Assembly (NCBI GenBank): GCA_023231475.1
Contig: JALJEE010001120.1
Coordinates: 62,001-99,809 of the forward strand
From: Seison nebaliae
Taxonomy: Eukaryota
DNA: 37,809 nucleotides
Direction: 5' to 3'
Shown here: positions 71 through 35,240 of the stretch, piece by piece
Layout of the letters: every line of letters starts with the position of its first letter
Position numbering within the stretch: position 1 is the first letter of the stretch
Position numbers and translations under genes: made by a program
The notes under the pieces: generated by a model
Seen by the model: only the letters and a program-made list of their open reading frames with translations
What the model was told of the DNA's origin: nothing
The model's database searches: none

Positions 71-2476
71 CAATTTTCTCATTAGGATTATTATTTTTGG
101 TGGTAGTAGTCGTGGTTGTAGTGACGGTAGTAGTGGTCAGTTGAGATTTCGACGAATCCTTCTTCTCTAATGGTTTACCGCTCGTACTCATTTTCCCAAT
201 TAATGATGTTGATTTCGTTCTCGTACTCTCGTCCGGTATGTCGAATAAGACAAACTTATTTTTTCCGATCACGTCATCAATTTGATCGAACTGACGAAAT
301 TGTTCATCGTATCGTATCGCTTCCTTATTCCTGTACATGCCCGTCATCATTATCGATTAAATTCAAATTAGAAAAATTTAACGTCAACTTATCAAACGTT
401 TCGTCGCATCGATAAAAGCCTTTTCGTTGTAATTGAATCACCTTAAGAAAATTTAAATAATTAATTAATTATTTAAATTAAAATTGAAAAAACTTGATCT
501 AATTTCATTTGATGAGTGATGGCCGATTCTCCAATTAAATGGAATTCTTGACGACTATTCGGATTAATATATTTCTTGAAATCATCACCTTTGTCCAATG
601 TGGCGATGGTGAGTAAATGTTCGAAATGAATACAAATTATATGAGGGAATTTCACCCTCGCCAATTCTTCGTTATCACCAAATTTCGATTTATTTAAAAT
701 CCACGACACTTTTACCGTCTTTTTGAAATCCTTATCATCGGGAAGATATTCCAAAATGATTTTCTTCTTTTTCATCTCATCAATACGGAAATTGCCCCAT
801 TGTAATAAAGTGATTTTGTCGTCAACTTTCGAATTGACGAAATCCACTTCCTCACATAACACATATGATCCATACCAAATTTCTTTCATTCCATATTCTT
901 CGAATTTTGGATGAAGACGTTGTAACTTCATTTCAACTCCCTTCACATTCTTCACTTCCACTTCAATCAAATCATCACATCTGAGTGCAGTAAATCGGAA
1001 TGATTTCGGATCAATCACTTTCTTATTGATCGCCCAAATCTTATCCCACGACATACTAATATTACTACGAGAACTACCTTGAGCAATGACGAATTGTTTC
1101 AACGCTTCCACGTCCATTCCTCTCCGAACAATTCCACGAACGGTGGGAAAACGAGGATCGTTCCATCCTTCTGCAATCTTCTCATCGACGAACCAAGCCA
1201 ATTTCCGTTTAGACAGGAGAGTATATTGGAGATTCAATCGAGAATATTCCCAAATATTCACCGATCGCAATCCCAATTTGTTGATGAACCAATGGAATTG
1301 ATCGTCACGATCATGATATTCCGTCGTACGTAGAGCGTGTGTCACACCTTCGATCGAATCAACAATTGGACAAGCGAAATCATAAGTCGGATACACTTTA
1401 TATTTGGTGCCATGACGAACATGCGATTGTGTTTTCGATCGATAAATGACCGGATCTCTCAGACAACCGTTTTTCGATTCATAATCAATTTTCGCTCTCA
1501 CACAATATTTCTTCTCATTATTTCCATTCTTCATTTCATTCCAAATTTTCAAATTTTCATCAACCGACAAATTTCGACATTTACTCGCCTCACAATTTTC
1601 TCGTTCTTTCTTCATCGTCTCACCGTCAGTGTTGTCACAATAGGCATGAGAATTCTTCAAAAGAAATTCACATTTCTCCATCATCAAATCGAAATAATCA
1701 GATGTTCGAGTGAACGAATCATATGAGACATTCAACATTTTCAAATCCTCTTCAATGATCTTTTCGAAATGTTCGTCCTCCTTCTCCGGATTCGTGTCAT
1801 CGAATCGCAGAATTAATTTACCTTTAAATTTCTCTTTATAGTGTTGATTGAGGAGGGCGGCTTTGGCGTGGCCGATGTGTAAATATCCACTCGCCTCTGG
1901 TGGAAATCTCACCACCACTTCCCCATCAACTGCATTCTCCAATTCGATGAATTTTCCTTCACCTGCATAATCTTTTCCCGTTTTCTCCACTTTCTTCTTT
2001 TCTTTTTTTTCGTCAATTTTAATATCATTTGATGGTTTTGTTCGTTTGAAATTCTCACATATTCGTCGATATTCTTTATTCGATTTCAATGAATTCAATT
2101 CCTTCAAACTATCTAAATGATTCTTGTAACGGAAGACGTTGGGAAATGTCTTGATTAATTTCAAATCGATCAAATTGAACAGATGCCACACCCATAAATC
2201 GGCTAACGTCAATTTGTCATTGATGATGAATGGTGCAATGATTTCTAATCGATCATTTAATCGTTTCAAGAATTGTCCCAATTCATTCATGTCCATTCCC
2301 GAATCCATCACATATTCCATGTTGCACAACAATTCGTCACATTTCAAACGATCTTTGACGTCTAATGACCAATAAGCGATCTCGTTCGTTTCCTTCACGA
2401 GCACTTTCGACGTATTGATCGATGAGTCTAAATTGATCGATTCCTTCGAAGGAAAATAACATGAGAGGAAATCCAT
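1..2476 (-). CDS. EPRS1: Glutamyl-tRNA synthetase part of bifunctional Glu-Pro-tRNA synthetase (3' end runs off the window); exons 2476-494, 441-389 (or 441-383), 330-<1
   Basis: N-terminal GST-like segment (LTLADLWVW), RFPPEASGYLHIGHAKAA (HIGH motif), LLSKRKL and WNDPRFPTVRG. Removing introns 442-493 and 331-388 restores VIQLQRKGFYRCD...FVLFDIPD. The ProRS half is not visible, so a stand-alone GluRS is not excluded. Confidence 0.93.
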
Positions 2477-2870
2477 TCTGGAAAAAAATTAAAAAAAAAT
2501 TTTAATTAATTAAATAATTTCATTATTCTTCATTCTTTTATAGGCAGAGAAGTAACGTGCAATTTTAAAATACAATGAACTAAACATTTCAATATATATC
2601 TTCCTCATAAACTCAGGTGGTTCGATTGAGCCAAACATTCGAATATGAATGAGTAAATTTTATAATTGCAAATCGAGTTGAGAAGAGACTGAGTTGGAAG
2701 AAAGCGAAAATTCTCAATGTGGCAAAGTTGAAATTAAACGTAATTGCCATTCGTCTATTCGAAAGATTTTTGCTTTTTCTCCGAGTTCATTTCTTTTTTG
2801 TTTAATCCTTATCGGAAAAGTTTATTTATTTCTTACCCAAATTTCTTTCATTTATTCTCCAAAAGAAAAT

Positions 2871-3478
2871 ATGTTGACTATTTATCAAATCATCTCATTC
2901 TTCTGTATGTTGTTATTGGCGGAATGCAAGGAGATTGCCGATGCAAATCTGTTGGTAAAGAAGTCGATTTTGAATTCGTTCTATGCTGAATCAATCGATC
3001 TCATCATCAAATATGACGTCTACAATGTGGGCGAGAGGTCTTTCATTTTTTCCTTTAAATTTTCAACATTTTTTCTTTTCCCAGTGATGCTTATAACGTG
3101 ATTGTGAAAGACACGTACGAAATTGACGACCTCAAATTGAAGAGTGATTCGAGTGAATTAAAATGGAGTAAAATCGTTCATAAAACCAACGTTTCCGCCG
3201 TCATCATTTATGAGCCGTTACAACCGAAAATCATGAACATTTCCGTCGGACTCATTCAATACGAGCAAGAAGAAGGCGGAAGTACAAGACAAATTGGACG
3301 AAGTAATAAAATGCCACAAATCGCCGTGATGGCCTTCAACGAATATAGTCGACAATACGCCTCCCACAAATTCGAATGGCTCGTCTTTTTCGGACTTTGC
3401 ATTCTCTCACTCTTCTTCCCATACATGTTGTGGAAACAGAGCGTCGATAAATATGAAGGAATCCAAAAGAAGTTGTAG
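2871..3478 (+). CDS. SSR2: Translocon-associated protein subunit beta (TRAP-beta); exons 2871-3037, 3085-3478
   Basis: Signal peptide followed by ANLLVKKSILN..AESIDLIIKYDVYNVGE|SDAYNV and a C-terminal EYSRQYASHKFEWLVFF...PYMLWKQS..KYE. A 47-bp GTC..CAG intron (3038-3084) joins the two ORFs. Confidence 0.92.
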
Positions 3479-3762
3479 ATAAATATTCCGTTCGATCTCC
3501 TTTCTTATTTGTTCCCAAAAAATTTTTCTTTCCATCAAACGAATTATCTGTTCAATTATTCATTGTGTGAGACAAAACGGCGTTTTTTCCACTAATCATT
3601 TCATCGATTAGAATTTGTTTAATTTATAATAAATTTGTTTTTCCCAACAAAATTTTCCCTTTTTAAAACTCAAAATTTTCCTTTTTTACTACTCAAAATT
3701 TTTCCATTTATCGACTAAAATTTATTAACTAAATTTCTAATTTTAAAATTTAAAATTTTTTT

Positions 3763-5064
3763 TTATTCATCTTTTCCATCGAGGAAATTTCTGATTTCTT
3801 CCGGTAATTCATCATCATCTACACAACCACAATTGAGTTTATCTTCTTTTCCTTTCGGAGCGAATGATGGTGTGACAGATGGTTCGCCAGAAAATCGTGA
3901 AGCGATCGCTGGCGACATTTCCCGAAGTTTATCGATAGCTGCTTCTTGAAACGATTGGATGATATTTTTCTTCTCCGTAAATTGTCTTTCGGACCATTTC
4001 CCTTTTTCCTCTGACAATTTCTGCGACGAATGTTTTCCACTCGATAATGGTCGTCGTTCTGATGGTTTTTTTTCCGAAAACATTTCTTCCACATTTTCCT
4101 CTTCGTTTATTTCTGAAACGACCGTTTTCTTCCCATTACCGAACAAGATTCTTGAGAGGGTCGAATAAAACGTTTCGCCACTCACTTCCACTTCATTTTC
4201 CTGAATTTTCCCTTCCGATGGTAATGTGATGGAAGCGTAAACTTTCGGTGGTTCCGTCAAAAATTGACATTCCTCCTCCTCCGGAAATTTGTATAATGGT
4301 CGTTCGATGATTCCGTTGGGAAGATTGTCATGATATAACCAATCGCCATATTGACGTTCATTCCAATCGAATTCATTCACACCAGTCACTGTCACATAAT
4401 TTTTTATCGTTTCCTCCCCGAAAATTTCACTTAAATAATGTTTGATTTTCGGCCACAATAATTTCGGATACCATCTCACACGATCCACATTACTCTTACA
4501 ACACTTATATTTATGATATGGATTTTCGTTCGTTAATTGATATTTCGGATTGAGATTTTCCAGACACGTTTGTCGTTCTTCTTCCGTGGAGCAACCGGAA
4601 CATGGTAACGGGAGACATGGCAATTGTTCGTAGAATGAATTAATCTCTCGATTCAAAGTTATGATTTCTTGAGGTCTGGCCGATCGATAAGCGTCAGTTC
4701 TCGATGGCATAAATTTCCCTCGTTGATGTGCCGCTGTGAGATGATTGAACGGTCCATCGATCGGATCATTCCAACGACTTCTCGCCCAAATCGTATCGAG
4801 TGTCGTATAACCGAAATAAGGAAACCAGAAAAACCATAAAACTAACGGCCACGGACCGATTAACATGATGGGCAGAACGGAATAATTCGATGCATAATAT
4901 GAAGGAGTGAAGAATTTTTGAATTCCATAACCCGAATGAGTTTTCGGTTTACGTGCGATCGTCTTCGCGATGTCTCTCACATACTGACGACGACTCAAAC
5001 TAAAAGTTCGTTTAGCCAAATGACTGACCAAAGTGGGACGTCTTAGGGTTGATAAGATGGACAT
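3763..5064 (-). CDS. 433-aa putative mitochondrial single-pass membrane protein, N-terminal part weakly NDUFA4/C15orf48 (B12D)-like
   Basis: Intronless ORF with an Arg/Ser-rich, acid-free presequence-like N-terminus. One TM segment (VLPIMLIGPWPLVLWFFWF) is followed by DTIWARSRWNDP..PFNHL. The family assignment is by eye only. Confidence 0.6.
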   Translation of the reverse strand: MSILSTLRRPTLVSHLAKRTFSLSRRQYVRDIAKTIARKPKTHSGYGIQKFFTPSYYASNYSVLPIMLIGPWPLVLWFFWFPYFGYTTLDTIWARSRWNDPIDGPFNHLTAAHQRGKFMPSRTDAYRSARPQEIITLNREINSFYEQLPCLPLPCSGCSTEEERQTCLENLNPKYQLTNENPYHKYKCCKSNVDRVRWYPKLLWPKIKHYLSEIFGEETIKNYVTVTGVNEFDWNERQYGDWLYHDNLPNGIIERPLYKFPEEEECQFLTEPPKVYASITLPSEGKIQENEVEVSGETFYSTLSRILFGNGKKTVVSEINEEENVEEMFSEKKPSERRPLSSGKHSSQKLSEEKGKWSERQFTEKKNIIQSFQEAAIDKLREMSPAIASRFSGEPSVTPSFAPKGKEDKLNCGCVDDDELPEEIRNFLDGKDE

Positions 5065-5229
5065 ATAAAAACGGAGAGATGGAGATCAAAACAAAAAAAA
5101 AAAGAAAAATGAAATGAAAATTTTAGTTTTATTTGACGTGAAAACTTTTCACTGCTAATACCATAAAAATCAACTATTTATGAAAAAGAACAATTTATGT
5201 TTCTCATTTATGAAAATTCATCGACTTCA

Positions 5230-5840
5230 TTAATAGAAGTTGCAATTTTTCGAATTTAAAATCGATCGTTGATATCTCTTGTCGATCGGGGGGAGATCAT
5301 TAATACCGTTCAAACGGTAAAATTCTTTTTGAATATTCGTCGAAACCGGTAGCGGCGGTAAATCATATAACCTGTTCACATAACGACCATATTCGCTACT
5401 GGTCTTTACCGGAATTTTCCGTTTCTCCTCTTGATAGGCTAAAGCGTCGCCCAATTTTTTCATGACATATTTTTTCTCTGTAAAAATACGAGCGAGAGGA
5501 TATGCCGTTTTATCCGGTTTCTTCCAATAATTGTAACTCAATCGCTCCAAATCACAACAATGACCATACGCCTTAAATTCGTTGATATGATCGACGGCCG
5601 TTGGTACGTCGTACTTACTCCACGTCTCATAATTGACTGGTCTTTCGAACGACTTGAAAAAAAAAATTTGAAATTTTTAGGAAAAAAAATTGAAATTGTT
5701 AGAGAAAAATTTAGTTTTGAAGTAAAGTGAGAAACTTCGCTAATTCGTTCGAGCTTGAGAATGCGATCGAGGTCGTGAGTAGTTCGATAGACTTGTTCGG
5801 GCTTCGGTCGTATTTCGTTATGAAAGCGATTGTTAAACAT
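5230..5840 (-). CDS. CFAP90: CFAP90/C5orf49-like ciliary protein; exons 5840-5736, 5652-5230
   Basis: C-terminal EEKRKIPVKTSSEYGR...IQKEFYRLNGI resembles the C5orf49 signature. An 83-bp GTT..AAG intron (5653-5735) joins the two ORFs. Confidence 0.72.
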
Positions 5841-6030: not shown

Positions 6031-6901
6031 ATGAACGATGATGGCAAAATGGTGCAGCACTGCAAACAATTCCGAAAATTATATGAGAACGACTCGGCGG
6101 TCATTCGTGATGAGTTGAATTCATTAAGTTCCTCTCATCTGAAACCAACCAATCTTGCCGTAATTGATACGAATGACGATTTCTGCGATTCTGAAAACAC
6201 ATTGAACTGGCCCTCCAAACCGATCTGTCACCATCACGGTTCAAGTAATAAAGTCCTGCCTGAAGTTCATTTTGAAATTTTCTCTCAAAAAATATTTCTC
6301 TCTATATCCAACTTAGAAATTGAAGTATCGATCTAGAAATTATAAATTTCTCAAACAATTAAGGAAAGGCAGAAAAAATAGTCGAGACAACAACAACAAC
6401 AACAACCGGCATAGATCGAACGTCTTATATCGGGATCAAGACAATTGGCACATGAATAGTGAAGCAGGAAATCCTTTTAATGACAGTTCAGAAAAGGGTC
6501 AGGACTCTCAAGTTCATCTCCGTGAACAGAAATTACAATTCATCTCTCACACCGATGAAGTTTCGAGTGCGAGTAATCTCATTTCGAAAGTGGAAGAGAA
6601 GCCGATGCAGAAATTCTTCGATATGATCTCGACGGCATTCAACAAAACGAACAATAATTGTGGAGAGACGCCCGATATCGTCAATCCGTTGGAGAACATC
6701 GATTTTCGACGATTGGCACAGAAAATCGAAAATTTCGATTTGAGTTTCCTCAAGAATTTATCCATCAAGAATAATGGTAAGACGTCGGCATTCTGCTCAC
6801 TCATCTTCCTCATCATATTAGTCATTGTGTCCATGTCGAAATTGACGCAAATGCTCTGCATTCTGCTCGCGTTGAACATAGTCGTTTTCATCAAACTCTA
6901 A
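6031..6901 (+). CDS. Uncharacterised protein with C-terminal hydrophobic hairpin; exons 6031-6264, 6317-6901
   Basis: A 52-bp GTT..TAG intron (6265-6316) fuses two ORFs in frame (VLPE|KLKYRS). Two terminal hydrophobic stretches; no family recognised. Confidence 0.75.
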
Positions 6902-7362: not shown

Positions 7363-8866
7363 TCATTGACGGAACCGTTTCCGCCATCCGATTGCTATGC
7401 AGAAGATGAAGAGGGAGAGTAAGATGAGAATCAACACTTTATAAATGAACGATTCCGTTCGAATCATAAACAGTCCGTAAACTTTCTCCTTATTCACATG
7501 TGGCATATGTGGAGTCAGTGATAGTAGTGGAATAGTTGTGGAATTATTATATCTCGCACAATATTCCACACCTCTCCCCAGCACATTGACGGGAGTGATA
7601 CAAATGAGTTGGATAGTCTCGTTACAAATGATGACGATGTGTCGATAAGATGGTTTTATGTTAATCGTTCGATTAATCTCATTAGTTTTCGTTGTTAATC
7701 GAACGAAAAAATGTTTCAATGGCTCTTCATTTTCGCTTCCATTAAATTGCCAATTCACCATATATTTATCGGAACATATTCGATTGATGATCAACGAATT
7801 GATCACTTTCGGTTTAGTTCGAATTCGCACATACGTCGTATGAGTGGAATAACCATATCGATTCTTGATGACACATGTATAGAAACCGTTATCGTCCAAT
7901 GTGGCGTTATTTTTTTTTAGACGATAACCGTCGAAAACGAAACGATCCCAACTCTCGTCCACCTCTCGACGATTATGATACCATTGAATAGAGGGTATGG
8001 GAAATCCGGACGCCGGACAATTGAGAAATATGGTGGACTGATATGAGACGTAGAGCAGTTTTGGGAGATTACTCACGGAGAATACGGGTAGGGAAACGGC
8101 GACCAAATAGAGAATTCCAGTTGCTTTTATTTTAAGAAGGAAAAATGAGAGATAGAGAAAAAATTTAAAAAATGAACTGGTGGCGATATTGTCGATGATG
8201 GATTCGATAATCAAATTCTTCCATTGATCTCTCTTATCGTCGGACAATGTCTCTTTGAGTTTGACGAGACTGAATCGTAATCGATACGATTTGGTCAATT
8301 CGACCACAGAATTACTCTCGACACGTTTCTGACAAATGTAGATACCTTGAAAGGATTTGAAAATAATTATAATATTAAATAAATAATATAATAGAATGAG
8401 AAAGAAATTTGAAATAACCTCGATCGTTGATGGTCGTTTGTCGAATGATGAAGAGATCGGCGACGTCGTTTCGTCGAATACAATGATGGTCGGAATCGTT
8501 CCAACAATCGGGCACTTTGTGGATTTGTTCCGTTTCGAAAACATATCGTTTCCATTTGCTGTGAATAGGACATTTGAGGATGATGTAATTATTCTCGAGT
8601 AGAGATAATCGAAAATTGGAGAATAATGAGGGAATATCCTGATTGACTGGTAATTCTTTATAGAATGTCTGGAGAATTTGATCCAAACGGAACTGAAGTA
8701 ATTTATTTGGAATGATCGTCGAGTTATGTTGATCTAGAGAGACATTCTCGAACACTTGAATGGGACGTATATCTTCATCGCTATTAATTCTATTTGTGTA
8801 AACCAGATGAACTGATAGGAAATGAAAAAGAAATATATTGAGCAAAAAATTAAAATAATGCTTCAT
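7363..8866 (-). CDS. Type I membrane protein with two Ig-like domains and an FN3-like domain; exons 8866-8419, 8345-8178, 8123-7363
   Basis: Signal peptide; Ig1 (ILKCP..W..NDRG|IYIC); Ig2 I-set (LNCPASGFPIPSIQWYHN...DDNGFYTCVIKNRYG); FN3-like (VNWQ..ITPVNVLGRG); TM and short basic tail. Introns at 8346-8418 and 8124-8177. Confidence 0.85.
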
Positions 8867-10809: not shown

Positions 10810-12844
10810 ATGCTTGTCAATCTCAGTGGTGATTATAAGAAATATGCTGCGATTTTCGGTGCTTTCCTCCTACATCTAACCATCGGAGTCAATCATTCGT
10901 TTGGTTAGTGTCCGTCTTCACTTCTACCGCCACTTAACACTTATCCTCTTCCCACCCTCCAGGTAACATAGCGCCTTATATTGTCTCGTATATTCGGTTC
11001 GGTGAGAATGGAACGACCAAATACGTCGACTTCAATCAAACTGAAGTGGTCGATGAGCGGCACTTGAACAAGTATTATTTATTCGGTGGTGATTACAGTC
11101 AAATCGTTTGGATTTATGGAACGATGTTCGGATTGCAAGGTCTCTGTTCATTCATCGGAGGATTCTATGCACCCAAATTATCCACCCGAACATTGACCTT
11201 GATTGGTTGTAGCATTGCTGAGTTACTAATAAAATTTAATTTTAAAAATTACTAATTTACATTTTTCTCACATTAAGTTTGGGCATCATCTTAACCGGAT
11301 GGACGTTGACTTCTCGTAGTTTCGGTCCCATCATAATAACATTCGGAATTATGTTCGGTTTGGGCTCCGGTATCGTCTATATCCCGCCAATACAATGTGC
11401 TATGAATGTTCGTCATTACAATTTCCTATCAATTAATCTCATTTTAAACACTTTCAGTGGATGCCAGATAAACGAGGATTAGCAACTGGAATCGTTCTTT
11501 CCGGACAAGGATTCGCTGTATTCTTTTTCAGTTTAATTCAATCAAAATTCGTCAATCCCAACAATTTACCCCCAACCAAAGTTCGAGACAGAACGGCAAT
11601 AGAAGCGTTTTCTTTAAATCTTCTCTCTCTCCCTCTCTTTCAAATATCTCATAATTTACAGTTTCTTCACACAAAAAGAATTACTTGTTCGTGTGCCCAA
11701 CATGTTTTATTTGTTAGGCGGAATTTTCATCGGAATTCAAATATTCGCCATCAGTTGGCTGCAAGATCCCGAACCGGAAGATGAAGCTAGTCCGTTGGAT
11801 GTGCACAAAATCATTCGGAATGAAAAATCGATCGATTCAATTGAGAATACGGAAATCAGTGAAAATTCTGTGTCATCCGATCACACCACAACCGAACCGT
11901 CATATCAAAATCGAGAATTGTCGACCGGTTTTCTTTCATTTCCTCATTCATCAATCTCAATTCTCACATATAATCAGTACCGGAAAAATTTACTGATCCG
12001 ATCGATAACGATTTAAACCGAACTTCGACACATGTCGAAATTTTCAATCGATTACGGTTCGAATTTATTTTGGGAAGAATAATATTTAAATATTTTATTA
12101 AAATTCAATTTCCCTTTTTTAGCGAGTCGTTATCAGATCCAGCATTTCTCATCTTATATGTCACTATGTTTTGCATTCAAACCAGTGTCGTTCTATTAGA
12201 TTCATTGTATAAAGTTTGTAATTCATCAAAATCATCAAAATCATCAAAATCCTCATCAACCTTTTCTTTCGATTTTTAGTCTTATGGACAAACATTCATT
12301 CAAGACGATCATTTCTTGAGTTATGTGGGAGCGTTTGCTTATATCGCTCATGGTTTTGGACGTATGTTCGGCGGTTATGCTTTCGATAAATTCGATTACA
12401 AAGTTAATTTAGTTTAATATTTTTTATTGTATTAAATATCGGCTAGCTATCAATGGGAGTGTCTTGTGCGGCTACTGGTGTTCTGACAGCGACCATGATC
12501 CTCACACCGTACGGACATAAGGCCATGTTCTTCATTTGGATCGTTCTCCTCTATAATTTTTGGGCATGGTGCTTCTCCATCGTGCCGTCGGCAACTGCCG
12601 CTTATTTTGGAGAGAAGAATTTCGGTCCGAATTATGGACTCATTTTCTCATCAATCTCCATCTCATCAATCTTTGGTGCTACTTTATCACACATCTTATT
12701 GGACTATGTTGGCTGGAATGGAATTTTTCTTGTGGCGGCTGTTTTCGATCTGATCTGTTAGTTCTTTTTAGAATTATCGTCAATTTAAATATGTTCCTCC
12801 GTACAGGTCTCATTCTCGTGTTTATGATCCGTTTGAAGAAATGA
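10810..12844 (+). CDS. MFS transporter, oxalate:formate antiporter/monocarboxylate-like; 10 exons
   Basis: Motifs LLHLTIG..SFG|NIAPYIVSY, GIMFGLGSGIVYIPPIQCAMN|WMPDKRGLATGIV and YFGEKNFGPNYGLIF. Introns 10904-10962, 11222-11277, 11408-11457, 11607-11661, 11928-11977, 12057-12122, 12214-12279, 12403-12446 and 12757-12806 give one continuous frame. Confidence 0.92.
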
Positions 12845-13136
12845 GAGTGAGAGGAAAAAGTAACGTTAAAAAGAAAGTGACAATTAAATTTTAAAATAAA
12901 TTAAATTTTCTAATAAAATCTACTGTCGAACCAAATTACTCAATAATCTACGAAATTAACTATCATAATAATGACGATAAGATATGATGAATATAAAACG
13001 GTTTTGACATCGGAAAATAATAAACATAAATATTTCCTTTCGTATATTGAAAGAGAGGAAAATAAAAGAAAATTTTTTTTTTAATTTTAAAAATTTCAAA
13101 ATTTTAGTTTGTCGTTCAATATTTAACTATTTGACG

Positions 13137-13818
13137 ATGGCTATCCATACGTTGGGCCATATCACTAACCATAACATCGAACAATTGCGTTTACTGAATT
13201 CCATCATTTTCCCAGTGAAATATCCACAAACCTTCTATGACAAAGTGACGACGATCTACAATAAATATTCGAAATTCGGTTCCTCATCATTCTTCCTTCT
13301 CAAATCATCATTCGTCTTCTTTTTCTCAGCTCTATACAACGACATAATTGTCGGTGCAATTTGTGCACGTATCGAACATCGAGACAATGAGACGTCGATG
13401 TATATCATGACGATTGGCGTGTTACCAGCGTACAGGAAAATGAATATCGGTTCGCATATGAGAAAGATTGATGAAAAATTTTATTTTTTTTCTTTTACGA
13501 TAGGAAGTGAGTTGATGGATGAAATCGAGAAATGTGCAAAAGCAGATAAGAGTATTCGAAGGATTTATCTGTTATTTTCTTTCACTCACACACACAAAAC
13601 AACTTTAATCTTTCTTCCAATTCGACGGGAAAAGACACGTCCAAATTGACAACGTACCTGCATTGGAGTTCTATGAGAAACGCGGTTACATTCTCGTAGA
13701 GAAAGTGGAGAATTATTACGATCTCAGTAACATGCCACACGCGTATTTATTGGAGAAGATGTTGGAGGAGGAGGAAGAGGAGAAAAAGGAAGACGAAGTG
13801 GAAAATAGTTCAACATGA
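13137..13818 (+). CDS. NAA50: N-alpha-acetyltransferase 50 (NatE catalytic subunit); 4 exons
   Basis: LGHITNHNIEQLRLLNSIIFPVKY, YIMTIGVLPAYRKMNIG, IYL|HVQIDN.PALEFYEKRGY and ENYY. Introns 13279-13329, 13450-13503, 13571-13634. Confidence 0.92.
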
Positions 13819-14584: not shown

Positions 14585-16697
14585 TTATGAGATGTGACAA
14601 CACGATAACAATTTGGCTTTACCTGGCGAATTGTGGACTTGATCGCTATGAGGATATTCGTATAACATCTCGTCATGCTCACTCATGTTATCTTTGGAAT
14701 ATGAATTAAATTTCGATGTTTTCGTTTTATTTCGATCGGACGATGTATAATTCCGTTTTCCTCCTTCCTTACCGTTATTCTTCTGTTGTTGTTGTTTGAT
14801 TGTGAGATGATTGAAGAGTTCTTTTTCTTGTTCCAATGTGATCTTTTTCTTCTCTAACGATTCCACATTATTCGTGTTGTCTTCACTCTTCGTTTTGTCG
14901 CTCGTTTTCAAATTGTTTGAGGAAGCGGTGGCATTGGAGACGGTGGTAGCGGATGACGGGGGCGGTATTGTTATGGCACTTGTTGTTGCTACTGATGGAT
15001 AATTGTTGGAATTGGATGAGTATAAACTATTTTTTTGCTCTCCATCACCACTCTCGTCACAATCGTAAAATTTCGTTACTGTCGACGACGATTCTTCGCC
15101 GTTCGCTTTGCCGGACGGTCTGGATGGTGGAGGAGGAGTCGCTGTCGTTCCAGTAACAACTTCAGCGAAATTTGTATCATATTTTCTCGCTTTTTCTCTC
15201 ATCGACGCACGACGAATCGATGACGTTCGATTAACCGTACTTCCCGTTCTTTTGAATTCTTTATTTGAACGGAATTCACAATTATTTATCTCCTTCTGTT
15301 GTTGTTGTTGTTGTTGTTGTCTTTTCTCCAACATCCAATCGACGAGATTTTGATCAGGACAAATATCTAATGGTGTGTTACCACTATCATTCTTCTTGTA
15401 CAGATCGGCACTATGTTCGATGAGATATTGAATGATTTGCGGATTTGTCCACCATGTTGCTGCGTGTAACGGTGTCCAACCGTCACTATCGGTCGGATTA
15501 ATTTCTACGTTACATTCATCAATCAGAAATTTTATAACATCGAAATAAGAATATGCCGCTGCCACATGCAAATAAGTCGCGTTGTCTTTCGAATCGAAAT
15601 CTTTCCCCAATGTTTCTTGTTGAGATTTGTACGTATTCTGGTGAATTTGACTGATGGGCAACGAGAATTGCATCGACACCAATTGCCCACTCGATTTTGG
15701 TGCAGTCAATAATGAATTCTTCACTGAATTCTCCACCACCTCCTTCAATTCTCGTAAACGTCTCAACAAATCACGTTCTGGTTGACTTCTCGTCTCATCT
15801 ATCACTTTCTGCGTAATTCCTTGATCGGCCATCTTCATCTCGATTTGAATGAGTGTGTCATTATCCTCACAGATATCATACGGCATATTTCCATCAGTAT
15901 TCACCGCAAGAACATCAGCATTGTTCTCGATCAAAATGAGAGAAACGTCTTTATGACCACAAGTAGCGGCAGCGTGTAACGGTGTCCATCCGTCATGATC
16001 CCGAATGTTCACATCCGCGTTTTTCTCCAACAAACATTTCAACAATTCAACATTGTTATCGATACAAGTCTACCATACAAACGGTTTTATAAAAAAATTT
16101 AAAAAAAATTTAAAAAAAATTTAAAAAAAATTTAAAAAAAATTGAAAAAAAATTGAAAAAAAATTGAAAAAAAATTGAAAAAAAATTGAAAAAAAATTGA
16201 AAAAAAATTGAAAAAAAAATTGGAAATAAATTGAAAAAAAATTTAAAAAAAATTTAAAAAAACTGAAAAAAAATTGAAAAAAATTTCGATAATTTTTTTG
16301 TTTGAGATGGTAAATAAAGGTAAAAAAAATAATTAATTAACCTGATGTAGAGCTGTCAAACCATCTTCGTTTGACACATTCGGATCGACACCTTCATCCA
16401 ATAATCGTTTCACTTCCTCGATATCATTTCGGAAGGTGGCGTCCAACAACGTGACGGTTTCCGTGAAATGGACATCCGATTCATGATCCAGCATGACTTC
16501 GTTGGGAACGTCTGGAAAAGATGGAAATGATGTGATAGAAGAAGGAATTGATGGAAACCGTTTAATGACGATTCATAAACATGATACTTCTCCAATTGGA
16601 GTTCACGTCGCTTCTTGGCTTGGAGAAGTCGCTCGCCAGCCGACAAACGTTCGATATTCTCCATTTCTCTTATCAATTCTTCATGTGATAGAGCCAT
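14585..16697 (-). CDS. PPP1R16A: Protein phosphatase 1 regulatory subunit 16 (MYPT3/TIMAP family); exons 16697-16559, 16511-16342, 16069-14585
   Basis: N-terminal [22 protein letters not shown], ankyrin repeats ([41 protein letters not shown]) and C-terminal CCHIS CaaX box. The A versus B paralog distinction is vertebrate-specific. Confidence 0.92.
16091..16285. repeat. A-rich 10-12-bp tandem repeat (aaaaaaattt[a] / aaaaaaaattg) inside PPP1R16 intron 2
   Basis: Directly visible array of about 17 units. Confidence 0.9.
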
Positions 16698-19708: not shown

Positions 19709-19739
<31 letters not shown>

Positions 19740-21944: not shown

Positions 21945-24771
21945 ATGAATGAGCATGAGAAGATCTCGCCCGAGCTCATATCGGATGTGGAGCGATTGCA
22001 GGAGTTGCGCAAAGAGGCCGCACATCAACTCGACAGTACGGAACTACTCATATTCGTCTCATTACTCATAGTCGTCATTCTAACGATTTGGCTCTTCAAA
22101 TATAAGCGAGTGCGATTCGTCCACGAGACGGGTTGTGCTATCGTTTACGGATTGGTCATCGGCTCCATCATCAAATACATCGTTCCTTCTCACTCAGCTG
22201 ATCATTCTTACGTCAATTTGAACGTGACGAGTAACATAATTACGAATTATCGTGACCCACCTCAAATCTTGAGAATTCCCGCCGAAAATTCATCGATCAT
22301 TTTCTCGTACGAATTGAATGACGCTCATTTGCGTACCGTCAAAGAACGATCGGCAATCGTCGATAAAATGACATTTTCACCCGAAATCTTCTTCAATCTC
22401 CTCTTGCCACCTATCATCTTTTATGCCGGTTATTCGATGCATCGAGGTCATTTCTTTAAGAATTTCGGGACGATACTCACTTTCGCTTTCATCGGAACGA
22501 CGATCGCTTGTTTCATTTTTGGAAGTATCGTCTATACCGTCGTCGTATCGTCGAGTATCAAAGAATGGATGGATTTTTCTGATTGCACTTTCTTCGGCGC
22601 ATTAATCAGTGCCACCGATCCCGTCACCGTTCTCGCCATTTTCAACGATCTACATGTCGATGTGGATTTGTATGCGATGGTATTCGGTGAGAGTGTGATG
22701 AACGATGCTGTTGCACTCGTTCTAGCCGAGTTAGTCCATTTAATTTAATAAATTATTTAGTATTTTATTTAAATTTCTTTCTTTTTCCATAAAATTTTTA
22801 ATTTTAATTATTAGTATAATTCATGGAGTTAAAGAAAAGAAGTATGTTTCCAATTCTCGTTTTTCTGATAATGATAAAAAAAAACTGTCATCGTCTCTTT
22901 CTTTCTCTTTCTCTTTCTACTCTATCTCACGAGAGGAAAATGCACGTATTCAAATTCAACTCTTTTAGTCAACAAACTCATTTGAATTTTCTTTCGGTCC
23001 TCTCATCGGAAAAAACTAATAGCCAGACAATTAATATCTCACTCATTATATTCTGTGTATTCTTTTAAATTTAATAAATTAATCCAATTTCTTTTAGTAC
23101 AATCGAATCGTTCTCCACCTCGCACAAACCACCCACCATCGGTCTACTAGAGGCAGTTGGCAGATTCATTATGATCTTCACCGGTGGTTTCGCCATCGGT
23201 GCCAGCATCGCCATCATTACCGCTCTCATCACCAAGATGACGAATTTGAGAGATCATCCTTTACTCGAAATCGTCTTGTTCTTTCTCATGTCATATTCGT
23301 CGTTCTTGGCAGCGGAAGCTGTCAAATTCACTGGCATCGTATCGATATTATTTTGTGGAATTCTTCAAGCACATTACACCTATCACAACTTGTCAACAGA
23401 AGGGAAAAATAGAAGTAAAGAAGTTGAATTTGAAATTTGAAAAAAAATTAAAATTTTTTTTTTTTAAGATTTTTGAATTACTCAGTTTTATGAGTGAGAA
23501 TTTCATATTCCTTTATATCGGCATAACTCTCACTACCTTCCCATATCATCAATGGCAATATGCTTTCCTCATCGTCTCTTTCGTTAATTTCATTAATTAT
23601 CAACAATAATTTATTATTTATAAAATTAATTAATTTGAAGATCGGAATCGCTGTAGCACGAGCTATTTCCGTTTATGTTCTTTCATTCTGTTTGAATTTT
23701 GGACGAATTCAAAAAATTTCTTGGAATCAACAACATATGCTCTGGTTCTCTGGATTGAGAGGAGCGGTGGCGTTCGCTCTTGCCATTCGTAACACCTCCA
23801 CAAAAGCACGACAATTGATGATAACGAATACGGCACTCATCGTTCTCGTGACGGTTATCATCAACGGTGGATTGACGACGACCGTTTTATCATTCCTCAA
23901 AATTCCCATAAATGTTTCAGATGATATTGAAAATGAAGTTTCCAATTTTGTTCAAATTAAAATTTAAATTTCCATCATCAGCATCAATTGTTGACGAATG
24001 AGAATAATGTGAACGATTTAAAGAACGTGGATAAACGTGTGGCACTTCCTCTCCGATTATTTCAGAAATTCGACCACAATTACTTGAAACCCTTTCTCAC
24101 ACATAGTCGTCCCACTCTCATCGAGACATGTCCTCGATGGTTATTCTGGTTCGCTTACATCTTCACATCGGACGAACAAAAAACGTCGCGCACTTCCCCA
24201 ATTCATAGTTCGGATGAGAACGATCAACCCAATATCAACAAACAATTCAATCCCATGTTCATGCCACACGACGACAATCATCAGAATAATGAAATGGTTA
24301 GTAAGAATGACGAGAAGGAAAGAAAAGAATAAGAATTAAATTTTCCTTTAACTCTATTGACACTCAACGAGAATAAGTTTGACATTTTCCACTTTTTTTG
24401 GCATTTGGAAATTTATCGTTTGCTGCTACTTTCATTACCATCTGTTTCTCCTCAACACATCATTCCCATTCGACAGATCCAGCTATCCCATTATTTCGAG
24501 ACATGTTCCGTTTTCTGGTTTTTTATAGAAAAAATAATTTGAAAAAAAAAATTTTTGAAAATATAATAATTTGAAAAAAAAAATTTTTGAAAAAAAAAGT
24601 TTGAAAAAAAAATTATAATTTCTGCTAAATTCCGTATGATATTGATAACCGTTTTGCTTGTGGGAAAAATTTTAATTCTCTTCCAAATACTTTCTCTAGA
24701 TGAACGAAAGAAGTTTGAAGAGGCCGATGGAGAGTCGTGATAATATTGACGTAAATTTTATTGATCTGTAA
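21945..24771 (+). CDS. Endosomal/organellar Na+(K+)/H+ exchanger, NHE6/7/9 clade; 6 exons
   Basis: [66 protein letters not shown] and [13 protein letters not shown]. Introns 22730-23097, 23423-23468, 23583-23640, 23938-23981 and 24297-24699 (the last is less certain). Confidence 0.94.
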
Positions 24772-24879: not shown

Positions 24880-25140
24880 TTATTCTTCCACGTTATATCT
24901 TAATTTGGAATTGTCTTCAATGAACTTCTCTTCGACTTTGTGATGAACTTGATCGTATGGTGATATCATCAGATTCACTCCCTTCACATATTGGACGTAA
25001 GCGAAGATTGGAACGGTTACCATGAAAGTTCTCCACACCATCTTCACAAACGGCGAATTGTTGTACTGATAACGCCAGGGAAACATCGCCACTTTCTGGA
25101 GTAGTCCATATGGATATTTAACTTTCACTCGACCTTCCAT
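24880..25140 (-). CDS. Small (86 aa) single-pass membrane protein resembling Drosophila roh (CG30415)
   Basis: GRVKVKYPYGLLQKVAMFPWRY...TVPIFAYV matches my recollection of the GRxxxYPYTxxAKxAQFP pattern of roh-like proteins. The first ATG is at 25140. Confidence 0.65.
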   Translation of the reverse strand: MEGRVKVKYPYGLLQKVAMFPWRYQYNNSPFVKMVWRTFMVTVPIFAYVQYVKGVNLMISPYDQVHHKVEEKFIEDNSKLRYNVEE

Positions 25141-28108: not shown

Positions 28109-29624
28109 CTACAATCCATCCATTAACGACAGTAAATTCATCGAATTATCCACTCCATTTTTCTTCATTCGACTCTGCATATTCGTCAGATGTTTATTAT
28201 GTTCCGACTACAATTTAAAATTATTTATTATTTTTAATTATTATTATTATCATAATTAATTTAACATTCTCTTTAAATTGGAGTACGGTAAAATTGACTT
28301 TTTCTTCTTTCTCCTCTTCAACATCCGTTCGATACTCATTATAATCTCTAAAAATAATCAATTTTTTCCATTCTATTCAAAATGCTCAACAATTCGTCAC
28401 AGTCGTCAGCGAACAAATCAATTTGAATATCATCTTTCCGTGATTTTTGTTCGCCAATAATCATTTTTTGCAATAAATCCGATTTCCTTACTATAAATCC
28501 TTGATCGATATCAGGTACGACATACGACGATGTCTGAGAGACTTGGTCTGTTGAATTTCTGTAATTACTTGTCGTAGTGGTCGGTGTGTTAATGTACCTG
28601 AATTTATTTTTAAATTTGAACGAAACTATTTGATTTTAAAGACCAACATATTCTCACCCAACTTACTTGGCAATCGATGTCCTTTGTATTTGATGGCGAA
28701 ATTGCCAGGACTATTACAAATAATATATTTAACATTCGTTTCGAATCGTTTCGTTTCCACTACTCTCTTATCCTCGTAATATCTAAGCAATTTTTGATGA
28801 GTGATGGTGTGAGGAAAGAAACCTGATTTCACCTGGTACTTCAGTATCGAATGGCATGAGACCACTATCGTCGATGATGAAGGAACCGTCGGAATTCTGT
28901 TTTTTATTTTTGAGGAAAATCGAGACGCGAATACGCAGATCTTGGAAATAGATAAGGATTTGTTGATAACATGTCAACAATTCATAATCGGACATCTCAC
29001 AATATGCCTAACAAATTAATGTTATGGAAATAAATGATGGAAATAAATGTGAACTTTACGAAATAATTCTGCCGTGAAATCGATATTTCTCAGAACTAAT
29101 TTACAATTGTTCGTATTTCCTTGATTCATCTCCGTCAACATTTGACGTAACGTGTCTAAGTGGGCGAGACTGATAAGAATGCAATCTCGAGGACGGAGAA
29201 CTTTCGTCAACTGATATTTGACAATCATTGTCATCAGATCATATAACTAACAATAAAAAATAAAAAAAGGAAAAATTTTCAAATTAAATTAAATTGAAAA
29301 ATCCTTTCCAAACTTTGTTCATGTTATTTGAATTTAATTTTAAGATGGATGCATGTGCAATCTTGTCGAAAATATTTCTCAGATTCGATGTGGAGAACAT
29401 TTCTTGTGGTTTGAACACCTCCTCCACAAACGGTCGATGAAACATCGAAGTGATGATATCTTGCATAACTGTAATCGGATTAATCACTTCGACTGATCAA
29501 TCAAATTGAAACTTTTTCTTTTCTTTTCACTCGTAATTTCCTGATCGCGTAACCGTTGATCAAGAATGTAAACCATTTCACCACCTAAATTAATTAGTAG
29601 GAATGGAAGGGTTTTCAACGACAT
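28109..29624 (-). CDS. OSCP1: OSCP1 (organic solute carrier partner 1; ciliary protein); 8 exons
   Basis: MSLKTLPFLLINLGGEMVYILDQRL, AHASILKLN..MNK|LYDLMTM.VKYQ, FQDLRIRVSIFLK, EVPGEIR, LGENM|Y and terminal NLLSLMDGL*. Introns 29469-29512, 29247-29313, 29008-29054, 28783-28822, 28598-28647, 28348-28390, 28208-28265. Confidence 0.94.
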
Positions 29625-29715: not shown

Positions 29716-29729
29716 ATTGCCAAGGCAAC
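29716..29729 (-). promoter_or_regulatory. X-box-like RFX site GTTGCCTTGGCAAT
   Basis: Near-match to GTTNCCATGGNAAC, ~90 bp upstream of the OSCP1 ATG. Confidence 0.55.
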
Positions 29730-29863
29730 GACTAAATTCCATAGCATCATTCGAGAAATATCACAAATAAGAACAATCATCACTTTTAACTATTAGTTCT
29801 TAAGCTTTTCATATTATTTATTTATTATTTATATTATTTCTTTCTTAATTTTTATAGAATTTC

Positions 29864-29877
29864 GTTTCCATGGAAAC
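29864..29877. promoter_or_regulatory. Perfect RFX X-box GTTTCCATGGAAAC
   Basis: Exact palindromic X-box within a 22-bp perfect palindrome (29860-29881), ~240 bp upstream of the ciliary gene OSCP1. Confidence 0.8.
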
Positions 29878-29977
29878 GAAAAAGAAGAAATTCGAATCGT
29901 ATAATAATTTAATTAGGAAGAATACAAAGAAAAAAATTGATAGAATTCATTAAAATCGCATGTATAATTATCGACAA

Positions 29978-32812
29978 TTACGCGCCCTTATCCTCTCTCA
30001 AGTTCACCATCATTTGAATAATATTACGGTTTAATGTCGCTAGAATGGCATTGGAATCATCATCATCCTCATCGTTCGTGATTTGTGCAACTCCGTTATT
30101 CGCCAATATCATTTGAACATTAATCGGAGCGACAATTAACAGATTTGTCAATGAATACAACGTATTAAACACTTGATCGACAACGAGTGAATTGCACGAT
30201 TTCAAAACGTCCCGATATATTTTCACATCGAACAATACCATCATTCCACCTGAATATATGTTAAAAAAAATATGTTATTTTATCATTTCTCTCTCATAAA
30301 TCAGGATACAAATGTGAAATTTCTTAAGTGAAATTAAATTAAGATTTTTCTCTTTGAATTTCATTCAGAATTTTAAATTTTCAAAAATTTTCAAAAATTC
30401 CATTAAGTAATTCATAATAATTTTCCAATTTATAAAATTCATCAGAAATAATTGGAGAAGAAGGAGAAAAAGTAAGTACTAACCGAGTTCGTTGTATTCG
30501 AAGCGACAAATATGGTCATAAATTATTCGATGTAAACGTAATCCGTATTCCATTAGAATGGGATGTTGAAATTCGAACTGTTCGATTGGCAGTTTCCGTT
30601 GGGCATCGATACTGACAAGATCGACTTGCGTTTTCTCCACACGATCATTGATGGAGATTTTGGAAATGTTGCCTTTATATCGATTGGTGATATTGAGTCG
30701 ATTAATCTCGTCGATATATCGATGTTCTTCGTTGGCTTGTTCGGAGGTCAATCGGAACAATATGGATTTGATTCGTTTGATTTGTTCGCTGATCACTTTC
30801 GATGTGAATTGACAAGCGACGGTACTCTCCTTCATTTCCAATCCGTTCTGAACCGGTTTATAATCGGTTTTTTTTTGTTTCTGAGTGAGAATTAATTGAA
30901 GATAAGAAATGCAAGCGGAAAGATATTTTTCTTGTCCGTCAATCAATCGTTGTTCGATGGATCGAATGAATTTTAGTTTTTCACTCAATATAATATTCTT
31001 CGATTTCGACGAATAGATGTTGGGTAGAATGAAAGCGTTAGTAATCAAATTTAATTTTAAAACGATAATTTCAATTCGATGAATCGCATGTAACATATCG
31101 AGATTAACACCGTTTGTGAACAAGACATCCTCGCTATTCAGAGCGAGTTGTTGTGATCGATTATTCAAGAGATTTTGTGATGGCAAATTTTGTGTGATGA
31201 GATCGAATATGAAATAAAGAAATTCATCGAACAAGAACTTGAGAAGATAATGATATAATTGAATGACATTCTCTTCGATCTTCTCTCGCCAACTCGTCAT
31301 TTGAACGAAGAGAACATTGTTCATCCGTTTGATGGTTCGATAAAGGACATTGAAGAATTGTTTGACGGTGTTGACAGAAAGGAGTGTAGACAAATCATCA
31401 ACATTGATCAAATTATCATTTGATTCATTTATTTTGATCAGTTTATTAATGGACTGATATTTTTTCATTAATTGATTTGAAATATTTTCGAGATGACGAA
31501 AACGTTTCGATTCATTTGAATAGAATTTTATTAAAATAAATTGTAAAGAATATTGAAAATTTTTCATCTCATTGAAAACGTATCGATTGATCAATGTCTC
31601 ATTACTTTCCATCAATTCCACATAGAATCGATTGACGAATTGATAATCGTTAATTACTCGAACATTAATTAATTCTTCATGAAATCGTTGAATTAATTCA
31701 CAATTATCTTTTAAAAATTCGAGAGAATTAAATGAATTCCTTTCATTATTCTTTTCCTCTCCATCTTCTTCCTCCTCTACGACTACAATTTTACCATTCC
31801 CACTCACTTTCATTCGTTCGATTAAATCGATGGTATAACGACGGAATGATTGTTGATAAATTTCTTTCACAATCTTTTCCGTCGTTTTCTCATTAACATC
31901 GGGATAGATTTGATTCAATAATTTTTGCGAGTCTTCCGCTACTTGAACTAATTTTGTAATGTTGATTATTTCAGACGACGTCTTTCCATTTGACATACCA
32001 CCCCCCGCACGATAATAAATGAGATATTGAAGAATGACAAATTGAATGAATTGTTGATATGAATAGAATGAGATTAACATTCGTGAAATGGAATTTAATC
32101 GATTAATATTCGTTTTATTTAATAAATTCTCTTCAAATTGTTTCTTTACATTTAATTTCATTTCTACATATTTTTTCTCGATATATTTCTTCACGAATTG
32201 ATATCGATCCATATTTATATCGGAACTAATCGAATATAATTTTACCCACAATCGACAATTTCTCTCGTTCATCTCATCGTCCGAATTCGTCGAAGATGGT
32301 GCAGCAGCACATGATGGTAATTGATCGTTAATTTCAATCGTCGAATTGATGAGAATAAAAGTGTCTTCATTATCCAAATTATTTTCATTCTCGATTATAT
32401 CGACGAGAATGGTAAGAACGTCTTTCGTCTCAATTAATCGTTGACGTGGTAAACTGATTTTCTCGAGATCGTGACCGATTCCTGCGATCTTCGTCGCAAT
32501 ATTCGTTATCGAATCATCCAATGTCGTAGCTGTGGATGAAGAATGGACAATACTCTTCTCATTATCATTCAACATCATACTGAAACCGTTCAATTGAGTG
32601 GATGCATAAAAATTCTGACAATCTTCGATATATCTCTGTCTCGTCTCTTCGTATTCCTCGTCTAAATTCTCGAGGACATTATTGAAATAGTCGGTCATGT
32701 AAGAGGCGTCGCGAAGACCATCTTCATCGATGACGGAGATGATAGTTTCTACCGCTTTATTCACATCGAAACCATGAAGAGAATCGGAAGAGAAATTCAC
32801 AAGATTTGTCAT
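29978..32812 (-). CDS. EXOC5: Exocyst complex component 5 (Sec10), divergent; exons 32812-30484, 30249-29978
   Basis: LDDSITNIATKIAGIGHDLE..PRQR, ILTQKQKKTDYKP, STVACQ, EYGLRLHRIIYDHI..FEYNEL|GGMMVLFDVKIYR and LTNLLIVAP.N. Intron 30250-30483. Confidence 0.88.
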
Positions 32813-33615
32813 CTTTTAAAAATTATCATAATTTTTCGTATTTTGAAGCGGAAAATTTGAAATTAGAAAATCTTCCAAGTCATCTTCCCAACAACTCATT
32901 GGACGTTTAATATTATTTCTTTTTCAATTTTATCTTTAAATCAATTATTTTTTCCATTATCATTCGTCCTTCTTCGCCTCTCACTCATCCATCATATCAA
33001 CTGCTGATTAGAGAATAACATTTCGGCTACAAATCTCCCTCATAAATGAATCATGTATCTTTCTTATATAGCTAAATGAATTGTCTTTCCAACACACACA
33101 AACACACGCACACACACACACACACGCACGAGCGAATGAGTAAGTGTGTGAGTGAAATGGGATTTGTGTTTACTTACTCCATTTTCTTCCCATGTCAATG
33201 ACAAATACCGCGTTCCTCATCAAACATATGAATCTCATAAAGTATCATCAATGACTTTTATAAAAGTTTACATGAAAAACAAATATTGTAAGATTGCGAT
33301 GTGGAAACGATAAAAAAAAGTGGAAATTCTCATTTTCCTTTCACATTTTCTCTCCGTCCTGAAATGACCAGAAAATGGTGTGCATTTTTTCTTTCAAGAA
33401 TTCTTTCGTTTCTTTTTCACATTCTATTCTCTAATGTCTTATAAACTTTCTAACTCTTACAAACTAGTCCTTTCTCCACTCAAGTATTATATGTTATATT
33501 TTATTCTTCATTTCCTCATGAAAATCATTTATACTTTTCTTTTATTTTCAATTTAATTTTCCTTCCACTATTCGTTATGTTGAATTTTTCTAATTTTCAA
33601 CTTCGTCAAATGTGA

Positions 33616-35240
33616 TTAAATCCATTCGAATCGAAACCATGGATCATAATATTGGAAGCTCGTTTTCAGAATTGTGATGTAGAGTTCATGATTCGGTATT
33701 TGACCGGGATCGGCTTCGAGAATTGCTTTCAGGAAACCATGAAGTACGGGCGGGAGAGAAGGATAAATCGATTCGATAACAAACTCATTTTTCATCTAAT
33801 AATAATGGGAAATGAGTGAAAAAAAATAATTGGATGGGAACTTTCCTTGTCAATTGAATGAGATATTCCTCGTCTGATGGTTTCATTTCCGGAATATCAG
33901 TACGTAATCCAGCCGCTGGTTCGAATAGTTTCGGATCTTTCGTATAAATACTATTATCTAACTGAAAAGGATATTTTAATTTAAATTTTTTAATTTTAAT
34001 TTAAACTGTTTCCGTATTACTCGCTGATAATCCTTCAACGTTCAGACCGAATTCCTCTCTCTCACTAATATGTCGTTTGATTCGAGCGACTGCTTGAGCG
34101 TCTGATGCTTTATGACTGAAAGCTAAACGTTTCTCCAATATCGCCAGAACGATATGTTCCGCCGACCAAGGTAAAATACCCAAATGTAAATAAATAAGTA
34201 AGAAGGCGAGCGATTCAATATCATCGATCATACGGAGAGTTTGATTTTTGGACGTCATTCTCGGTTCGAAGAGTGATTGTAATGCAGTAATTTTCTCTTC
34301 TTTCAAACTATTCTCATCTCTTAATAGAGGCAAATTCGGATCGTCGTCTAAAGTAGAAATGAATCGACCGTATTGTTTCGTGGGTGTAGAACACACGTGC
34401 ATTCGAGAGAAGTCGATCAAATAAATTTTATTCACTTCATTTCCTTTTCCTACCACGATATTTTTCGTACTCAAATTACTTCCAATTCCAATTTGATTAT
34501 AGAAAAATGAATGGAAAATTTCCGTTTTTTTTTTTTAAATTAATGAAAAGTTTCCATTTTTTTTTTCAAATCAATAAATAATTTTCGTTATTGAAATATT
34601 TGATTGAAAGAAGAAAATTTAACTTGTATACCAATCCCAGATTGTGTAGAGTGCTCAATTGGAGCAATACCATAATTCCGATATAGGAGATGGATTTCAA
34701 CGACAATTTATCTTTCAATCGCAATTGTAACGAGTGAATACTGCCCCGATGCAATTGCATAGAGATGAATTCGTACATTTTCTCATTCTTCACATCTTTT
34801 GTCGACGATTTAACTGGTATTCGACCGTAAGCATAAACCGTTGAGAATCGATACATGTACGGCACATGTTTTTTGAGAATTTTATAAATTAAATATTCGT
34901 GACATAACGATTGGCGATTCTTTTCGTCTCTTTCACCGCCTCCATTTAACAATTTCAAGGCAATATTAATCTGCAACAATTTATCATGACATTCGAGTAG
35001 AGAGACTCGATTCGACGCTTCCAAATGATCTAGAACTTCGTATCGACCTTCAATCGTCGTTCCAATCGGAAAGTCAGATTCCAGAGTTTCTGGTGCGTTA
35101 GGAGCGGCGTCGACTAGTGAACACAAATTGAGTAATTGATATGTTTCCAAATCAGTCGAATCTTCTCTCACTAAACAACTTCGTGAGAAATCGGTTCGTT
35201 GTGAAGTAATGAATTCGATGGACTTCTTTTTCAGTGCCAT
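33616..35240 (-). CDS. CK1-group (CK1/TTBK/VRK-like) kinase-fold protein, probable pseudokinase; 4 exons
   Basis: IALK, HEYLIYKIL, QLSTLHNLGLVY|NNLSTKNIVVG, KIYLIDFS, DDIESLAFLLIYLHLGILPW and terminal FEW. Introns 34479-34623, 33962-34006, 33796-33841. Confidence 0.82.

Follow-up and report, generated by a model that had tools for sequence, protein, structure and literature searches.

Animal introns usually begin with GTA or GTG, and a purine at the third intron position (+3, as in GURAG) is a feature of the major, U2-type class. The closest precedent for the donors (5' splice sites) described here is Entamoeba, in which donors read GUUUGU(U) and the U1 small nuclear RNA (snRNA) has co-evolved to AACAAAC, its ACAAAC pairing with GUUUGU, and in which the ACAGA of U6 is unchanged (Roy and Bowser, 10.1101/2022.06.08.495308). 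We analysed a window of 37,809 nucleotides (nt) of Seison nebaliae DNA (contig JALJEE010001120.1), and all coordinates refer to this whole stretch. Seison nebaliae is a seisonid rotifer, a tiny animal that rides on crustaceans. In the window, 36 coding introns are predicted in 12 genes; the donor +3 base is T in 35 of them and C in one (SSR2, 3038), and the purine of the U2-type GURAG feature is found in none (A 0, G 0).

All introns were predicted from DNA sequence and homology, with gene models rebuilt from reading frames, Pfam, PDB and three deposited Seison models. The first NHE exon agrees at 99% with a deposited protein of Seison nebaliae, and the exons of MFS and OSCP1 likewise find models of this species. 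GT...AG ends are present in 36/36, which is partly by construction, as the models were built on GT-AG. The introns measure 40-368 nt (median ~52 nt) and are distributed as follows: GluRS 2, SSR2 1, CFAP90 1, an unnamed gene 1, an Ig-domain gene 2, MFS 9, NAA50 3, PPP1R16-like 2, NHE 4, OSCP1 7, EXOC5 1 and a CK1-like kinase 3; thus up to nine lie in one gene, and several other open reading frames (ORFs) of the window are intronless. The share of GTT among the GTN triplets of the window is 0.366, which gives a binomial P of ~1e-14 for 35/36, and T makes up 0.473 of intron interiors, which gives a P of ~8e-11 for the +3 T count. Because GTA is as common as GTT inside the introns (10 vs 11), AT bias does not explain the +3 T, in agreement with the original prediction, which had reasoned that such bias would favour both alike. 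That prediction had counted 36 GTT among 37 introns with no GTA or GTG: the pattern stands, the same 12 genes with a pyrimidine at +3 were recovered, and so were the GTT donors of all nine MFS, seven OSCP1 and three NAA50 introns and the single GTC. The tally is 35 of 36 by our own models, and the NHE introns, claimed to be five, number four according to deposited model P0001 and gapless homologues; a fifth was not found. In the following list R is a purine and Y a pyrimidine, P0121, P0271 and P0001 are deposited models, and frame enumeration and the second lineage are treated below it.

331..388, minus strand: GluRS intron 2, GTTGAC; needed for frame, no GTR option; Pfam tRNA-synt_1c
442..493, minus: GluRS intron 1, GTTTTT; needed for frame, sole GT option
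3038..3084, plus: SSR2 (TRAP-beta) intron, GTCTTT, the only non-GTT; required, sole GT option; Pfam states 49/49 meet
5653..5735, minus: CFAP90-like intron, GTTTCT; required, no GTR option
6265..6316, plus: unnamed-gene intron, GTTCAT; required, no GTR option; without homologue, exact ends uncertain
8124..8177, minus: Ig-domain gene intron 2, GTTCAT; length a multiple of three, stop-free; composition only; weakest, may not be an intron
8346..8418, minus: Ig-domain gene intron 1, GTTATT; required, sole GT option
10904..10962, plus: MFS intron 1, GTTAGT; GTG option loses at least 25 bits; P0121
11222..11277, plus: MFS intron 2, GTTACT; P0121 and frame enumeration; second lineage aligns to +3
11408..11457, plus: MFS intron 3, GTTCGT; P0121 and frame enumeration; second lineage aligns to +3
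11607..11661, plus: MFS intron 4, GTTTTC; P0121 and frame enumeration; second lineage aligns to +4
11928..11977, plus: MFS intron 5, GTTTTC; P0121 and frame enumeration
12057..12122, plus: MFS intron 6, GTTCGA; length a multiple of three, stop-free; P0121 and frame enumeration; second lineage aligns to +3
12214..12279, plus: MFS intron 7, GTTTGT; GTR options lose at least 32 bits
12403..12446, plus: MFS intron 8, GTTAAT; P0121 and frame enumeration; second lineage aligns to +4
12757..12806, plus: MFS intron 9, GTTAGT; P0121 and frame enumeration
13279..13329, plus: NAA50 intron 1, GTTCCT; gapless to human NAA50; second lineage aligns to +7
13450..13503, plus: NAA50 intron 2, GTTCGC; gapless to human NAA50; GTR options lose at least 17 bits
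13571..13634, plus: NAA50 intron 3, GTTATT; gapless to human NAA50, and frame enumeration
16070..16341, minus: PPP1R16/MYPT-like intron 2, GTTAAT; exons meet at MYPT1 residues 79/81
16512..16558, minus: PPP1R16/MYPT-like intron 1, GTTTCC; required, no GTR option
22730..23097, plus: NHE6/7/9-like intron 1, GTTAGT; P0001, frame enumeration, homologues
23423..23468, plus: NHE intron 2, GTTGAA; P0001 and frame enumeration; position common to annelid model
23583..23640, plus: NHE intron 3, GTTAAT; P0001 and frame enumeration; position common to annelid model
23938..23981, plus: NHE intron 4, GTTTCC; P0001; no GTR option, other GTY ends possible
28208..28265, minus: OSCP1 intron 7, GTTAAA; P0271; GTA alternative 21 nt upstream, scores slightly higher on composition
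28348..28390, minus: OSCP1 intron 6, GTTGAG; P0271 and composition
28598..28647, minus: OSCP1 intron 5, GTTGGT; P0271 and composition
28783..28822, minus: OSCP1 intron 4, GTTTCT; P0271 and composition
29008..29054, minus: OSCP1 intron 3, GTTCAC; P0271 and frame enumeration
29247..29313, minus: OSCP1 intron 2, GTTTGG; P0271 and frame enumeration
29469..29512, minus: OSCP1 intron 1, GTTTCA; P0271; Pfam Oscp1 states contiguous
30250..30483, minus: EXOC5/Sec10 intron, GTTAGT; required, no GTR option
33796..33841, minus: CK1-like kinase intron 3, GTTCCC; frame enumeration
33962..34006, minus: CK1-like kinase intron 2, GTTTAA; composition favours it over GTA option
34479..34623, minus: CK1-like kinase intron 1, GTTAAA; required, no GTR option

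The placement of these introns was tested by enumerating every frame-restoring GT/GC-AG pair up to 45 nt from each intron end. For 24 of the 36 no frame-restoring GTA or GTG donor lies in this range. Among the 12 introns with a GTR option, five such options lose at least 17 bits against hidden Markov models of non-Seison homologues, contiguous homology fixes two (PPP1R16 intron 2, by MYPT1 residues 79/81, and OSCP1 intron 1, by Pfam Oscp1 states), four favour GTT by composition only (OSCP1 introns 4, 5 and 6 and kinase intron 2), and the last, OSCP1 intron 7, is about even on composition, its GTA option scoring slightly above GTT (21.2 vs 19.5). Four of the 36 have a stop-free length divisible by three, and one of these, Ig-domain intron 2, is without homology support. 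All three NAA50 junctions are gapless against human NAA50, and 23/36 junctions are identical to those of the deposited Seison models, which are themselves predictions with likely false fusions: P0121 (10810-13818) joins MFS with NAA50, P0271 (24625-29624) joins OSCP1 with downstream ORFs, and both likely fuse closely packed genes. Canonical-looking sites, for example GTAAGT (28666) and GTATGT (12362), sit within predicted coding exons.

DNA contigs were also aligned at 80% likeness over positions 10790-13860, a stretch with 12 donors. The runs also contain a second, diverged lineage, which has a depth of 2-4, an exon identity of 81-89% and differences mostly three bases apart. It reaches six of the 12 donors, and in 6/6 the alignment passes through GTT, the introns beyond being unalignable; the last aligned base is +3 at 11224, 11410 and 12059, +4 at 11610 and 12406, and +7 at 13285. 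The +3 base of this lineage is read from the alignment end point, with a +3 mismatch possible at 13285, and two low-complexity matches of 35-36 nt inside introns (11232-11266, 12216-12251) were set aside. These alignment ends place the boundaries independently of our own models, and the chance of 6/6 T at a free +3 would be 0.47^6 = 0.011 (hand calculation). As far as sequence can tell, this retention indicates selection on +3 T. Two diverged lineages within the Seison species have been described (PMC8351084), and the one seen here may be one of them. The second lineage is also seen, at low depth, at 25081-25111, besides 11056-13285.

From an annelid NHE model, precisely the exon that introns 2 and 3 flank in Seison is missing, and thus the positions of both introns are common to the two animals. 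Shared positions argue for conversion in place, and the Seison donors have likely been converted at old intron positions. New positions are a mark of introner-derived introns, and the two shared NHE positions speak against a new origin. The exon sizes of NAA50 presumably match those of the human gene. When relatives of NHE were sought in metagenomes, 80 loci turned up, nine of them with split matches (49-71% GC), and none of these nine could be assigned to a rotifer; five loci viewed by eye have mostly GTA-type donors, at positions other than those of Seison. With a +3 T that is nearly fixed, kept in a second lineage and found at positions shared with an annelid, the original claim that this lineage reads its donors differently is supported.

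The rest of the donor carries little signal. Position +3 holds 1.82 bits (n=36) and is nearly as fixed as +1/+2, and its T:C ratio is 35:1 vs 3.3:1 in intron interiors. Position +4 is flat (A 12, T 12, C 8, G 4), with A as expected from the introns (12.0) and T not enriched (12/36 vs 16.9 expected), so that no +4U preference is seen. The normal register is kept: G at +5 occurs in 10/36 vs 2.0 expected from the intron background and A at -2 in 20/36 (P 0.003), +6G (2/36) and +7T (15/36) are at background, and +5A is not enriched. A at -1 occurs in 17/36 (P 0.04). Positions +4 to +6 had been described as mostly degenerate, which holds for +4 and +6; +5G is enriched relative to introns and not relative to decoys. 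GTTTG is found in 2/36 donors, so the strict GUUUG(U) motif of Entamoeba is not the one used here. The minor, U12-type donor is RTATCCT, and none of the 36 carries it. The acceptor is loose at -3 (C 14, T 13, A 9), no branch-point motif rises above shuffles near the 3' end of the 36 introns, interiors are 5.5% G and 47% T, and AG is found more than ~30 nt from the donor in only 3/36 introns.

The +3 base faces position 6 of U1, normally a pseudouridine, and later G44 of U6. Taking into consideration that: (i) the 35:1 excess of T over C fits an A partner, as G would pair with C no less readily than with U, (ii) +3 interacts weakly with U6 G44 (PMC11732430), which points to U1 for this position, and (iii) in a pairing scan, circular for +3, the top four arms are those carrying A at position 6 (area under the curve 0.79-0.83 vs 0.66 for the canonical arm); we hypothesize that U1 position 6 has changed to A, the same change as in Entamoeba, so that only U would pair at +3. 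We regard this step as evenly balanced between right and wrong, and it would fail if every U1 gene of Seison, and the 5' end of every U1 RNA that it expresses, read AUACUUACCUG. The +3 T would be held under selection in introns that would otherwise be ordinary, short, major-type GT-AG introns, read without a shift and with weak preferences for A at -2 and G at +5. METTL16, the writer of N6-methyladenosine (m6A) on U6, is apparently lost, as Seison alone of the 25 syndermatans in a BUSCO table is scored "Missing" for it (PMC12256650); the usual +4A preference would then be gone and +4 probably unread, and this loss could explain the flat +4. In the same table SNRNP40 and LSm2 are also missing in Seison only, SNRNP27 is complete, ZMAT5, of the minor spliceosome, and ZCRB1 are missing in Seison and acanthocephalans, and ZCRB1 also in monogononts (PMC12256650). 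Donor information being small, the short length (~52 nt median) and the G-poor, T-rich interior likely help to define the intron. Taken as a whole, the picture of an intron-rich animal in which U1 reads GUU genome-wide, GTA/GTG donors are dead, thousands of ancestral introns have been converted in place and U6 m6A has been lost is tentative, and we place it a little short of an even chance.

Several points weigh against it. In most lineages whose donors have shifted, U1 has stayed canonical: all 227 Saccharomycotina genomes that yielded a U1 candidate carry ACUUACC (PMC10581693), and U1 is unchanged in Thecamonas and Micromonas (10.1101/2022.06.08.495308). Even with a changed arm the rest of the donor pairs poorly (~5.2/9 matches), and the pairing scan does not fix U1 position 5. 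The METTL16 entry comes from BUSCO scoring of a long-branched lineage, 76/954 genes being Seison-only losses in that table (PMC12256650), and METTL16 loss elsewhere gives +4U (PMC10581693), whereas +4T is not enriched here. The U1 change would be deduced from the donors of introns that are themselves predicted from DNA, and decoy GTT sites carry +5G about as often as these donors do (0.26 vs 0.29). Rfam gave no snRNA in the window, apart from two chance matches.

An unlikely alternative keeps U1 canonical and moves the +3 check to the catalytic stage, where G44 of the U6 ACAGAGA box would have become A or the U6/PRP8 geometry would demand U, helped by unmethylated U6. The near fixity of +3 (1.82 bits) beside loose U1-facing neighbours does resemble an active-site rule, METTL16, LSm2 and SNRNP40 are among the genes scored as absent from Seison alone (PMC12256650), and a change in the U6 ACAGA is known in Cyanidioschyzon (PMC10581693); however, ACAGA is invariant in 240 fungal species (PMC10581693) and retained in Entamoeba (10.1101/2022.06.08.495308), and an unchanged G44 would favour C like U, while C is found in only 1/36. 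It is also improbable, in our estimate, that both snRNAs are canonical and that U at +3 is now recognised, through a newly acquired base-specific contact, by a protein such as U1C, LUC7, PRP8 or a TIA-1-like factor that binds U. Donor shifts in yeasts do track proteins (METTL16, SNRNP27K) and not snRNA sequence (PMC10581693), and U1C of Entamoeba is highly diverged (10.1101/2022.06.08.495308); yet the yeast shifts concern +4, U1C contacts are sequence-agnostic and made to the backbone (PMC10599564), and SNRNP27 counts as complete in Seison by BUSCO (PMC12256650). That the machinery is unchanged and that T-rich introns together with biased placement, by us, by the original prediction or by the gene predictor, make the pattern is largely refuted and very improbable: interiors are indeed T-rich, the introns are predicted and deposited models hold false fusions, but the +3 T count departs from intron T content, GTA matches GTT in interiors, 24/36 introns have no GTR option and +3 is kept 6/6 in the second lineage. 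A shifted register, in which canonical U1 would bind one base downstream (GTTAAGT-type), is hardly credible and was rejected, since G at +6 does not exceed background, neither +5A nor +7T is in excess and the enriched G at +5 fits the normal register, even if the excess of -1A is what a shift predicts. Human shifted-register 5' splice sites, reportedly described by Roca and Krainer, are alike in their GTT start and differ in needing +6G/+7T, which are not enriched in Seison.

Other features of the window were also recorded. The segment 25350-25690 is a high-copy element ending in poly(A), with a contig depth of 1,700-5,300 vs 8-17 around it, and is likely the 3' end of a non-LTR (long terminal repeat) retroposon; 26363-26869 is mildly multi-copy (depth 36-85) with broken frames. 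Pyrimidine-rich AG acceptors stand directly before the start codons of GluRS (2478, minus) and NAA50 (13109, plus), possibly as acceptors of 5' untranslated-region introns or of a spliced leader, and the packing may be operon-like. A 5' candidate intron of GluRS (2478-2556, also GTT) disrupts the frame and was dropped before counting, being rejected as coding. The long or medium ORFs at 3763-5067, 24880-25140 and 26960-28003 (minus) and 6031-6901 (plus) have no Pfam match. The CK1-like kinase (33616-35240, minus) has a divergent catalytic loop, VYNNLSTKN, and from its sequence is likely a pseudokinase.

Co-evolution of splice signals and spliceosome is documented mainly in intron-poor protists, with few substrates to change. 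A change at +3 in an animal rich in ancestral introns would show that a core pairing of snRNA and substrate can be rewritten at thousands of sites. Seison would then also serve as a natural experiment on whether U1, U6 or a protein enforces +3, and on what U6 m6A does at +4; standard donor models would mis-score its genome. A literature search, with most subscription papers outside it, returned no Seison or rotifer donor motif and no comparable animal report, and the searched parts of two Seison genome papers and their supplements hold no snRNA or donor motif. A pan-eukaryote intron survey lists Seison nebaliae (PMC10639083), and a bdelloid tubulin paper, where searched, gives only "GGT" at 5' sites (PMC3464624).

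Among described systems, the +4 A-to-U switch of Saccharomycotina, linked to METTL16 and SNRNP27K, is alike in that donors change with apparent METTL16 loss and the +4A preference is gone (PMC10581693); it differs in lying at +4, with snRNAs unchanged (PMC10581693), whereas Seison changes +3 without an excess of +4U. In Fritillaria borealis, likewise an animal, donors are read differently throughout the genome and U6 carries less m6A (PMC13326754), a reduction that in Seison would be deduced from METTL16; unlike Seison, which keeps GT-AG and narrows +3 where a relaxed reading might be expected of a similar change, it has non-GT/AG introns and a duplicated U2AF (PMC13326754). Entamoeba shares with Seison a +3 U in nearly all introns (35/36 in Seison) of GT-AG major type, but its introns are few and their motif is strict, 96.9-98.5% of the donors being GUUUGN (10.1101/2022.06.08.495308). 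In Seison, by comparison, 36 introns in 12 genes are altered only at +3 and loose from +4 to +6, and a change in U1 would be read from these donors.

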